NCBI GenBank assembly: GCA_965216755.1
Contig: CBDCGL010000011.1
Location: 928,001-992,000, forward strand
Reading direction: 5' to 3'
Source: Alphaproteobacteria bacterium
GTDB lineage: Bacteria; Pseudomonadota; Alphaproteobacteria; UBA7887
Length of the DNA stretch: 64,000 nucleotides
The notes under the pieces are model-generated. The model was given only the letters and a program-made list of their open reading frames with translations, did not search any database and was not told where the DNA came from. The position numbers were made by a program, and so were the translations under genes. Of this stretch, positions 30,440-32,907 are shown piece by piece; position 1 is the stretch's first letter, and each line of letters opens with the position of its first letter.

Positions 30440-30889
30440 ATGACGAAAAAAAGCTACACCCGATCTGCAGAAGCGGTAGCAAATCTGTCGCCAGAGCAGT
30501 ACGCCGTCACCCAAAATGACGCAACCGAGCCGGCGTTTCGGAATGCATTTTGGGATCACCACGAAGTTGGCCTCTACGTTGATGTGGTCAGCGGCGAACC
30601 TCTCTTCACGTCAAACGAGAAATTCGACTCGCATTGCGGTTGGCCGAGCTTCACCAAGCCGATCGAACCGGAACATGTCGTCGAACGCCACGACGAGAGC
30701 CACGGCATGATCCGGACTGAGGTCCGTTCAAAATCCGGTGATTCTCATCTGGGCCACGTCTTTCCCGACGGCCCAGGAGCAAACGGCCTGCGTTATTGCA
30801 TCAACTCGGCGTCGCTTCGTTTCATCCCGAAAGACCAATTGGAAGCCGAAGGCTATGGCGAGTATGTCTCGGTCTTCGAGACCGACTGA
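30440..30889 (+). CDS. msrB: Peptide-methionine (R)-S-oxide reductase
   Basis: [27 protein letters not shown]. Confidence 0.96.
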
Positions 30890-31818
30890 TGGCGGCACAT
30901 GCGTCAAAACGGGTGATCTATGCCGCGTTGGCCGGCAATTCCCTGATCGCGGTCACAAAATTCGCTGCTGCGGCAATCACCGGTAGCTCGGCGATGCTCA
31001 GCGAGGCGATTCACTCCGTGGTTGATACAGGGAATCAAGGCCTGTTGCTGTTCGGGATGCGCCAAGCACGCCGCCCCGCCGACGAAATGCATCCATTCGG
31101 ATATGGCAAAGAGCTCTATTTTTGGACCTTTGTGGTCGCGATTTTGATTTTCGCCCTTGGCGCCGGCATTTCCATATATCAGGGGATCGACAAGGTCCTG
31201 CATCCCCACGCACTCACGCACGTCTACATTAACTACGTGGTTCTGGGATTGGCGATCATCTTCGAAGCTGGCGCCTGGTGGATCGCATTCAAAGAGTTTC
31301 GTCGGTCGGCCGGCCGTCGGGGCTTTGTCGCCGCCATTCGAGACAGCAAGGACCCAACAGTGTTCACCGTACTATTCGAAGACAGTGCGGCGATGCTGTC
31401 TTTGATCGTGGCGATCATCGGCATAGCGGCCTCGGACCTGTTAGGTATTCCGATCCTGGACGGCGTCGCGTCGATCATCATCGGGTTAATTCTGGGCCTA
31501 ACCGCCGTCGTCCTGGCCTATGAGTGCAAGGGCTTACTTATTGGCGAAGGCGCCAGCCCAGCAGTCATTGCTGGCATCCGCCAAATCGTCATCGCGCGCC
31601 CGGAGATCAATCGAATCAATGAGATCCTGACCATGCATATGTCGCCCGCGGACATCCTCTTGAACGTCAGCGTTGATTTTCACAACAAATTCAATGCCGG
31701 ACAGATCGAAACCACTGTGACCGAACTAGAAGACGCCATAAAACGCAAATTTCCCGAAATCAAACGGATTTTCATCGAGATTCAAAGCTGGCGTGCGCAC
31801 CGCCGGAATGTTACCTGA
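30889..31818 (+). CDS. Cation diffusion facilitator transporter
   Basis: EAIHSVVD, HPFGYGKE, FEDSA; TGATG coupling with msrB. Confidence 0.92.
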   Translation: MAAHASKRVIYAALAGNSLIAVTKFAAAAITGSSAMLSEAIHSVVDTGNQGLLLFGMRQARRPADEMHPFGYGKELYFWTFVVAILIFALGAGISIYQGIDKVLHPHALTHVYINYVVLGLAIIFEAGAWWIAFKEFRRSAGRRGFVAAIRDSKDPTVFTVLFEDSAAMLSLIVAIIGIAASDLLGIPILDGVASIIIGLILGLTAVVLAYECKGLLIGEGASPAVIAGIRQIVIARPEINRINEILTMHMSPADILLNVSVDFHNKFNAGQIETTVTELEDAIKRKFPEIKRIFIEIQSWRAHRRNVT

Positions 31819-31840
31819 ATGTGAGGGCATCAAGGTCGCC

Positions 31841-31871
31841 ACAAAGAAAGGCGGCGCGGTGGCCGCCTTTC
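31841..31871 (-). terminator. Intrinsic terminator (minus strand; may also serve the CDF gene)
   Basis: GAAAGGCGGC/GCCGCCTTTC stem, followed by TTTGT on minus strand. Confidence 0.7.
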
Positions 31872-31918
31872 CGTGATTTTGGGCCGAAATTGTAGCCCTG
31901 ATCCTAAGATCGTAAGCG

Positions 31919-31999
31919 TTAGCGCAGGCCGAAGAGGCTGCTCCCCTGTCTGCGACCGCCGCCTAAAGTCACAAGATCGGCTCCGATATCACTGGACAT
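31919..31999 (-). CDS. 26-aa small ORF MSSDIGADLVTLGGGRRQGSSLFGLR
   Basis: ATG 7 nt after AGGAGG of a perfect extended SD; TAA at 31919-31921. Confidence 0.5.
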   Translation of the reverse strand: MSSDIGADLVTLGGGRRQGSSLFGLR

Positions 32000-32706
32000 T
32001 GGATCACCTCCTTTCGCTGATTGGACACTCCATTGAATATGCACGGAATTTCTCGGCTTTTCCAGTCTTCGATATGGGGTGTTTCAATGGATTTCCTTGG
32101 CAAAAAGCCGGTCGATCCCTGAACGATTGACAATCCCCGTCTCGTGATCCGGACCGTGTCGCGATACTCGGCGTGATATCGGGGCGCACCATCGTCGAAC
32201 CGATGCCCCCAATCGACTGTAAACCCGATACAATCTCGGTCGTATTCCGTCGCCTTCTCTACTGAGACGATGTGAAAGATCGGCATCGCCGCAGCGATCT
32301 GAACTGTGCTTGCCTCATACGATCCGACTATTGGCAAGGTCGTCATGTTGTGGACAATCAACCGCGATACGCGCCGCTCAACCAACATATTTCAGAACTG
32401 ACGCCGGCATAGTGCAACTCCGGCCCGTACGTGGTCAAAACTCACAAAACCAACCTGGGTTGCTAAGCGAGCAGCGGATTAATTCTCATGTAACGACAAT
32501 AATTGTGATGCGACCTTTGTGATGACTAGGCATGCGCCGGCGGCGGCAAAGCCGGTGTCTCGTACCTGCTAAAACGTCATCGCCACTCGGGCAAAGGGTG
32601 CGCCATTCTTTGCAGGCGCCGACCATTTGTACAAACGTGGACTTCACATGATGCGGCGCCCCGGCGTAATCGCCGCGTTGGCCAATCACGGTACTTGCCG
32701 TTGAAA

Positions 32707-32782
32707 TGGTGGGCGATGACGGGATCGAACCGCCGACCCTCTCGGTGTAAACGAGATGCTCTCCCAGCTGAGCTAATCGCCC
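32707..32782 (-). tRNA. tRNA-Val(TAC)
   Basis: Reverse complement GGGCGATTAGCTCAGCTGGGAGAGCATCTCGTTTACACCGAGAGGGTCGGCGGTTCGATCCCGTCATCGCCCACCA. Confidence 0.97.
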
Positions 32783-32907
32783 GTCAGCTTGGGACAGTAA
32801 ATCACAAAGCTCGCAAGAGAAGGCAAGAAAAATGGAAAGTTTGTATCGGCCACCCTTACAGTTGGATGGCCGATACACAACAAGATCAGTTGCTCGATTG
32901 CCCGTTC

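Follow-up and report, generated by a model that had tools for sequence, protein, structure and literature searches.

The window analysed here, a 64,000-nt stretch of contig CBDCGL010000011.1 from an alphaproteobacterial genome, contains a small element on the minus strand between a cation-efflux gene and a tRNA-Val gene. On the plus strand, positions 32000–32015 read TGGATCACCTCCTTTC and are identical to the last 16 nt of the host's own 16S rRNA, whose gene (L003) ends in ...GGCTGGATCACCTCCTTTCTAAGG. The sequence-only reading had taken these letters for the 16S 3' tail, and the end of the host 16S gene agrees with it at 16 of 16 nt. The identity covers exactly 16 nt, because the flanking base differs on either side. 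The 5.0-Mb genome contains its 15-mer core three times. Apart from the copy at 32000–32015, the core is found at the 3' ends of the two 16S genes, and the word at 32000–32015 is thus the sole copy outside the two rRNA operons in the whole genome. By our own arithmetic, a given 16-mer is expected by chance about 0.002 times per 10 million positions.

Read on the minus strand, the same positions give the complement GAAAGGAGGTGATCCA, which forms an extended Shine-Dalgarno (SD) sequence that matches the 3' tail of the host 16S rRNA base for base over 16 nt of complementarity. This SD directly abuts an ATG at 31999–31997. The ATG opens a frame of 26 codons that is closed by TAA at 31921–31919 (ORF 31919–31999, minus strand), which confirms the arrangement first read from the letters alone. 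Comparison with other genomes, given below, reveals that the family has retained the open frame and its length, but not the peptide.

Several features surround the ORF. The leader box TCCAATCA at 32018–32025 (minus strand) corresponds to the family consensus TTCAACAA, which is conserved at −13 to −6 in 83 SD-anchored loci and is predicted to be single-stranded. The same loci share a TTG at −53 to −51 and an A/T-rich box at −29 to −24, the upstream logo being partly imposed by the search pattern. In the window, the −10-like CATATT at 32036–32041 (minus strand) coincides with the A/T-rich box, and the conserved TTG falls in the −35-like region (TGGAAA) at 32059–32065 (minus strand), a weak match that the consensus scan did not list. 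The promoter-like TGGAAA-N17-CATATT proposed earlier is thus present and lies at the conserved box positions of the family, but it agrees with 8 of 12 consensus positions by count, below the 9 that the promoter scan requires. As CATATT (32041–32036) lies on the family −10 box, the transcription start would be located near 32029–32030, approximately 7 nt downstream.

At the other end, an intrinsic terminator occupies 31841–31871, with a stem at 31846–31871 and then a U-run in the minus-strand reading. The terminator scan listed this G+C-rich hairpin and its T-run on the plus strand, in agreement with the terminator noticed before. The terminator helix is found across the family alignments (36 subtype copies and 80 loci from named genome records). 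From these signals we infer a free-standing small mRNA of about 190 nt, which would run from about 32030 to 31841 on the minus strand, the transcript and both of its ends being predicted.

The hairpin at 31846–31871 may act as a two-way terminator, serving the small RNA on the minus strand and, from the other side, the cation-efflux gene that converges on it. We notice that the rising arm of the terminator (31841–31871), GAAAGGCGGCG, resembles the SD word, and that, judged by eye, the falling arm could pair with the SD at 10 of 11 positions. The falling arm is not a favoured partner of the SD in folding, and the likeness may reflect the combination of an A-tract and a G+C stem.

Downstream of the element, no gene follows on the same strand, and the next gene is the convergent cation-efflux gene (30796–31818, plus strand). 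Upstream are an ORF that carries half of a glyoxalase domain, the gene for tRNA-Val(TAC) (32707–32782, minus strand) and lon. The tRNA-Val(TAC) gene stands on the same strand as the element, about 650 nt upstream of it. The 139-codon ORF (31969–32388, minus strand) matches Pfam Glyoxalase_7 over residues 28–77, corresponding to positions 10–59 of the 133-position profile, whereas Pfam matches are absent from the rest of it in all three frames of the minus strand. The tail of this ORF crosses the promoter region and the SD of the element and extends into the small ORF. This ORF is probably the remnant of a truncated gene, with a frame that stays open by chance.

The element is widespread in the class. 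The SD word followed by NNTG was found in 8 of 61 relatives, and the 21-mer with at most 3 mismatches in 8 of the 23 genomes of the window's own family. A looser pattern matched 85 of 401 class genomes at 89 places, whereas its reversed control gave 7 matches by our own count. Two pattern matches each were observed in G209, G316, G377 and G393, and one each in the other positive genomes (85 in total). The exact 21-mer occurs in at least 113 stretches of named genome records. A search of Alphaproteobacteria for the SD word with a start codon had been proposed as a check by the sequence-only reading, and these matches bear its expectation out. Among the matches listed, the carriers belong to Sphingomonadales, Rhodobacterales/Paracoccaceae, Hyphomicrobiales, Acetobacteraceae, Azospirillum, Geminicoccaceae and Brevundimonas; one is a MAG labelled Gammaproteobacteria and the remainder are Alphaproteobacteria lineages. 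A record with such a label (L192, 'MAG: Gammaproteobacteria bacterium') contains a full-length copy at 1944–2139 on its minus strand, with a 26-codon ORF and a score of 76 bits under the covariance model R1 described below. A wrong label, a contig placed in the wrong bin or a transfer could explain this copy.

From the class genomes we extracted 88 distinct elements. Five of them (L052, L058, L060, L091 and L106) were removed before all counts as ordinary genes with ORFs of 49–82 aa, leaving 83 loci; L060 was a second pattern match, in G393. An independent set consists of 74 further loci from named genome records, taken among the matches listed. All loci were gathered through the shared SD word, which alone supplies part of every model score, and the counts overstate independence because of the kinship among these genomes. 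The search pattern left the first two bases at the 5' end of the SD free, and they are still conserved, with G in 73 and A in 74 of the 83 loci. Meanwhile, 13 of the 83 loci show GGUGGUCC in place of GGUGAUCC at SD position +8, where an A-to-G change would keep a G-U wobble with the 16S tail.

At the gathering thresholds of Rfam, the window contains three tRNAs only. A permissive cmscan of 31600–32900 revealed a match to RF01867, the Caulobacter sRNA CC2171, with 33.9 bits and an E-value of 3.7e-5, the cut-off of the family being 75 bits. The alignment spans model positions 1–159 of 159 over 31848–32023 (minus strand), and the locus is the best RF01867 match in the host genome, the next one having 21.5 bits (E 0.037). 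The locus scores below the cut-off because its central part differs from RF01867. The earlier reading had suggested BjrC1505 as a possible identity. We reject this candidate, as the same permissive filters gave no BjrC1505 match at E ≤ 10 within 31600–32900, and the sub-threshold RF01867 match was found instead.

The suggestion that the element is conserved in Alphaproteobacteria holds, with homologues of RF01867 across the class. We sampled 151 genomes of the class and observed matches at E ≤ 0.001 in 22 of them, with scores that descend without a gap from 90.5 to 27.7 bits. Only 5 of the 22 matching genomes pass the Rfam cut-off, which therefore misses most of the family. Among 14 named control genomes, RF01867 has a match in Caulobacter vibrioides only. 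RF01867 and the locus share the order of a 5' consensus CAACAA box, GAAAGGAGGUGAUCCA and a start codon, a similar size, a closing helix in which the first codons pair with the sequence that precedes the terminator, and a terminal hairpin. In the cmscan alignment, GUGAU of the window (codons 3–4) is paired with AUCAC as the closing helix of RF01867. Rfam files RF01867 as a non-coding sRNA, whereas the locus carries a conserved open frame. According to the accessible part of the report, CC2171 has been validated by Northern blot in Methylorubrum extorquens (bioRxiv 10.1101/2022.01.24.477521). The accessible portions of the literature naming CC2171 or RF01867 mention neither the 16S complementarity nor the ORF, and a literature search on CC2171/RF01867, the SD word and the peptide found nothing tying the family to the 16S tail.

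A separate record exists in the literature on small proteins. Hahn et al. (RNA Biol 14:1353; PMC5711450) described the rre small mRNAs, which comprise rreB of Bradyrhizobiaceae and rreR of Rhodobacterales in the accessible text; the same text holds no mention of Rfam, CC2171 or BjrC. Our search for follow-up work on the rre genes found Hahn et al. 2016 alone. Like rreB and rreR, the locus has the layout of an independent small RNA, bounded by a promoter and a terminator of its own that are predicted at the locus: the terminator was found, promoter-like boxes lie at the family positions and the neighbours are not conserved. It carries a perfect complement to the 16S 3' end (16–17 nt in the group, 16 of 16 nt here) that adjoins or overlaps the start codon of a very short ORF; at the locus, the ATG begins at the next base and the ORF has 26 codons. 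The host is alphaproteobacterial and the genomic context is not conserved, RF01867 loci being present in class genomes and the word carriers listed being nearly all Alphaproteobacteria. As the locus shows every sequence criterion of the rre genes, the family is already in print. Judged by its sequence, the locus is a divergent, sub-threshold member of the alphaproteobacterial rre/CC2171 (RF01867) family. It had been foreseen that a strong Rfam or literature match would remove the novelty of the element, and the published rre small mRNAs (PMC5711450) have this effect.

The locus also departs from the rre genes as they appear in the accessible text of PMC5711450. The complement is 16 nt at the locus and 17 nt in the paper. 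The start codon is ATG at the locus versus GTG in rre, and the text gives ATG for Azospirillum only, whereas 52 of our 83 loci have it. The ORF counts 26 codons versus 14 in rreB and 18 in rreR, and the peptide is unrelated. The closing helix (P1), the layout of a hairpin followed by the stop and the frame-independent RNA motif, which are presented below, are all undescribed in that text. Finally, strong 30S binding and weak translation were demonstrated for rreB only.

What is known of the homologue is drawn from the same accessible text (PMC5711450). The rreB RNA has 165 nt and a complement of 17 nt, its ORF starts with GTG and encodes 14 aa, and its gene adjoins a tRNA-Gly gene. It is located mainly in the ribosomal pellet and co-sediments with 30S, which depends on the 5' extension of the SD. 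Fusions of rreB to egfp are weakly translated, and changing the start from GUG to UAG prolongs the half-life of the RNA from 10 to 37 min. When the ribosome-binding form was overproduced 20-fold, growth was unchanged, and rreB RNA is far scarcer than ribosomes. The rreR gene, an 18-codon gene of Rhodobacterales, has a function that the authors call elusive, and synthetic RreB and RreR peptides are unstructured. The genomic context of rre genes is not conserved beyond Bradyrhizobiaceae. The sequence-only reading had proposed a 30S-binding or dual-function RNA with a micropeptide. The 30S co-sedimentation and weak translation of rreB (PMC5711450) fit this proposal, but a functional micropeptide is unsupported.

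Comparing the reading frames of the 83 loci revealed a strong preference for an open frame of defined length. The first in-frame stop lies 54–96 nt after the start in 80 of 83 loci, compared with 12 of 83 for each of the other frames, in which about half of the loci have a stop within 40 nt. The in-frame stop distance has a median of 75 nt and an interquartile range of 69–78 nt, and 74 of the 83 ORFs are 21–30 codons long. In the named-record set, the stop falls in the same range in 70 of 74 loci, versus 15 and 20 of 74 in the other frames. The start codon is ATG in 52 loci, GTG in 25 and TTG in 6. ORF length varies by lineage, with 14 codons in two rreB-like loci, 18 in the Sphingomonadales- and Rhodobacterales-type loci and 21–27 in most others.

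The codons themselves do not behave as coding sequence. We compared five lineage groups, each uniform in ORF length, and the mean entropy at codon positions 1, 2 and 3 is flat, with 0.77/0.81/0.85 in the lineage group of the window and 0.79/0.82/0.70, 0.71/0.63/0.69, 1.00/1.05/0.98 and 1.17/1.08/1.08 in the other four. The synonymous share of codon differences amounts to 10–27% in these groups. In the subtype of the window, the best-conserved internal nucleotides, resembling GAGCAGCC, are located 51–57 nt after the start, and they were found in 34 of 83 loci. This motif is read in frame 0 in 20 of the 34 loci, in frame 2 in 10 (including the window) and in frame 1 in 4, while the stop codon ends 24–26 nt after the motif start in 26 of the 34. 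These patterns suggest that selection keeps the open frame, its length and the RNA fold, but not the amino-acid sequence, and selection seems to act on translation as far as a defined point. The evidence against a coding signal is strong but not final, because overlapping RNA constraints could blur a weak one.

For the RNA fold, we aligned 36 copies of the window's subtype with MAFFT (alignment A3) and named the structure from RNAalifold. In A3, 79.7% of the cells are paired versus 67.6% in shuffles, and the covariation score is 0.457 versus 0.252; none of 500 shuffles reaches either value, and slid partners give at most 0.219. The predicted P1 helix is formed by GUGAU at nt +8 to +12 of the ORF (31988–31992, minus strand) and AUCAC at 31873–31877 (minus strand), directly 5' of the terminator. 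Its cells are paired at 90.6% in the 36 sequences of A3, and 5 of 5 pairs have changed on both sides. The second predicted element is a hairpin at 31924–31953 (minus strand) that contains the motif found in 34 of 83 loci. In the 36-copy alignment its lower stem covaries, whereas the top four pairs (GGAG with CUCY) and the CAGC loop do not vary. The 3' end of this hairpin (31924) lies 2 nt ahead of the TAA (31921). The hairpin is subtype-specific, because its letters occur in only about one quarter of the 80 named-record sequences.

The covariance model built from A3, referred to as R1, recovers 80 of 80 named-record loci. In this independent set of 80 sequences, 88.3% of the cells are paired versus 68.9% in shuffles (0 of 500 reach it), and P1 is paired at 92.6% with 5 of 5 pairs changed on both sides, in an alignment (A5) that was fitted to the R1 structure and is hence biased towards R1. 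The five loci above the Rfam cut-off (L012, L013, L021, L022 and L023) score 37–56 bits with R1 over its full length, and the shared SD word contributes part of each score. In the window R1 has one match, whose 128.6 bits follow by construction from its own copy in the model and carry no evidence value, and it has none at the next-best RF01867 loci of the host.

Averaged partition-function folds of 154 sequences predict a largely open leader on the 5' side of the SD core (unpaired probability 0.6–0.76), while the GGAGG core is partly paired, with an unpaired probability of 0.17–0.40. As the core is partly paired, access to it may need a 5' toehold, an idea of Hahn et al. (PMC5711450, accessible text) with which the folds are consistent. 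The stop codon falls in a predicted unpaired linker (0.45–0.52), just 3' of a paired arm (0.21–0.28). In 77 partition-function folds, the 14-nt SD is somewhat more open than the whole RNA (0.46 versus 0.34). We also considered sequestration of the SD by an internal mimic of the 16S tail (CCUCUU of the motif, or CCUGGAUUGUCGCC in Rhizobiales-type copies), which seemed appealing on inspection, and rejected it as a conserved feature, the partners of the SD core being inconsistent across the 77 folds.

Taken together, we consider it likely that the locus encodes an rre/CC2171 small mRNA that acts through 30S docking and translation-driven remodelling of the RNA, with no functional peptide. The single-stranded leader would present an SD extended over the whole free 16S 3' tail (16 nt). 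As the SD pairs with the whole free tail, docking of 30S is expected to be very tight at the locus, as it was shown to be for rreB. The small subunit would dock on the single-stranded 5' part of the complement and then zip up a 16-bp duplex. The start codon would sit between this duplex and P1, which from +8 would close the RNA body onto the terminator. In a 30S initiation complex the mRNA is covered as far as about +15, and for this reason seating of the AUG would need P1 to open. Start-codon seating and translation would thus require the ribosome to open first P1 and next the motif hairpin. Elongation would unwind the RNA body up to the stop, which in the letters stands just 3' of the hairpin. 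The likely role of translation would be to remodel the RNA and to time its turnover ('ribosome-regulated expression'), rather than to make a functional peptide. Such remodelling may set the fate or activity of the RNA, and the output could lie in the turnover of the RNA itself, in a 3' part that acts in trans or in a read-out of the subunits competent for initiation.

An SD-like word with another purpose than efficient initiation, as proposed for the locus, has a precedent. STAB-SD, the 5' mRNA stabiliser of Bacillus thuringiensis cryIIIA, contains an SD-like word fully complementary to the 16S tail and binds 30S. However, no start codon comes after the STAB-SD word, which stabilises a long mRNA, whereas a start codon follows directly at the locus, and initiation makes the half-life of rreB shorter.

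Other explanations of the locus have to be weighed against this reading. The word is identical to rRNA, as it would be in a stray rRNA gene fragment or a chance match, but the identity ends after exactly 16 nt on both sides, and hundreds of genomes carry the element complete with ORF, P1 helix and terminator. We checked whether the flanking features are absent in relatives; they are present there, which speaks against a chance match or fragment, and its probability is negligible in our view. The short ORF followed by a terminator is also the layout of ribosome-dependent attenuators, in which a leader peptide would control a downstream gene. In the accessible literature, rnTrpL/peTrpL of Sinorhizobium meliloti resembles the locus as a small RNA with a short translated ORF and then a terminator (predicted at the locus); attenuators of this type, however, sit upstream of the operon they control and have regulatory codons in the ORF, whereas the locus has no conserved downstream gene. 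The next downstream gene in the window is convergent, and among downstream neighbours no Pfam family is common to more than 3 of 82 loci on the same strand or 3 of 80 on the opposite strand. The rre context is likewise not conserved outside Bradyrhizobiaceae (PMC5711450, accessible text). Because the downstream neighbours are not conserved, we reject the attenuator as extremely improbable, and the element is to be regarded as a separate gene rather than as a leader.

Two further alternatives accept the RNA and disagree about its ORF. If the RNA were a purely non-coding sponge or decoy, it would titrate or park small subunits through the 16S tail, and the ORF would be irrelevant. Complementarity over the whole free tail agrees with this, as does the association of rreB mainly with 30S, which depends on the SD 5' extension (PMC5711450, accessible text). 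However, stops are avoided in frame 0 only and the stop lies at a fixed position, neither of which an untranslated RNA would need. The start codon affects the stability of rreB, 20-fold overproduction has no growth effect, and the RNA is far scarcer than ribosomes (same source). A sponge is thus decidedly unlikely, and the unchanged growth also disfavours the ribosome-titrating RNA of the sequence-only reading. Alternatively, the 26-aa product could be a functional micropeptide, with the extreme SD only setting its expression level. The open frame and its conserved length (80 of 83 and 70 of 74 loci) would fit such a gene, and the peptides begin with M-S, M-F or M-T in 83 of 83 class-genome loci. 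In the accessible text of PMC5711450, the RreB and RreR peptides are moreover read as conserved within clades, with translated fusions. Against this stand the lack of three-base periodicity in the five lineage groups, with synonymous differences of 10–27%, the reading of the best-conserved internal nucleotides in three frames, and the lineage-specific ORF lengths (14, 18 and 21–27 codons) with no likeness between lineages. The conserved codons 3–4 are one strand of the covarying helix P1, and RreB and RreR are unstructured, with overproduction having no growth effect (PMC5711450, accessible text). Flat codon-position variability and an RNA motif spread over all three frames leave the functional micropeptide suggested earlier unsupported, and we regard it as unlikely.

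The family of small mRNAs with an extended SD has been in print since 2016, and Rfam listed its Caulobacter member even earlier. Our analysis joins these two separate records, the 'non-coding' CC2171 of Rfam and the 'small protein' genes of the rre group. New here are the frame of fixed length, the stop just after the hairpin, the helix from the first codons to the terminator and the lack of any sign of peptide conservation. These comparative results steer experiments to translation-driven remodelling of the RNA rather than to the peptide. Carried further, they raise a tentative possibility that we hold to be rather doubtful, namely that translation as such, and no peptide, is the 'product' that rre genes conserve across Alphaproteobacteria. 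The RNA could then be a ribosome-gated switch, in which 30S docks over the full tail and the seating of the start codon then unzips P1 and the hairpin, so that the structured 3' body is freed or destroyed, and which either reports or regulates the supply of initiation-competent 30S or releases a trans-acting 3' domain. If this were true, the docking 30S would be free and mature, with an unoccupied 16S tail, and the switch would act, for example, during growth transitions.
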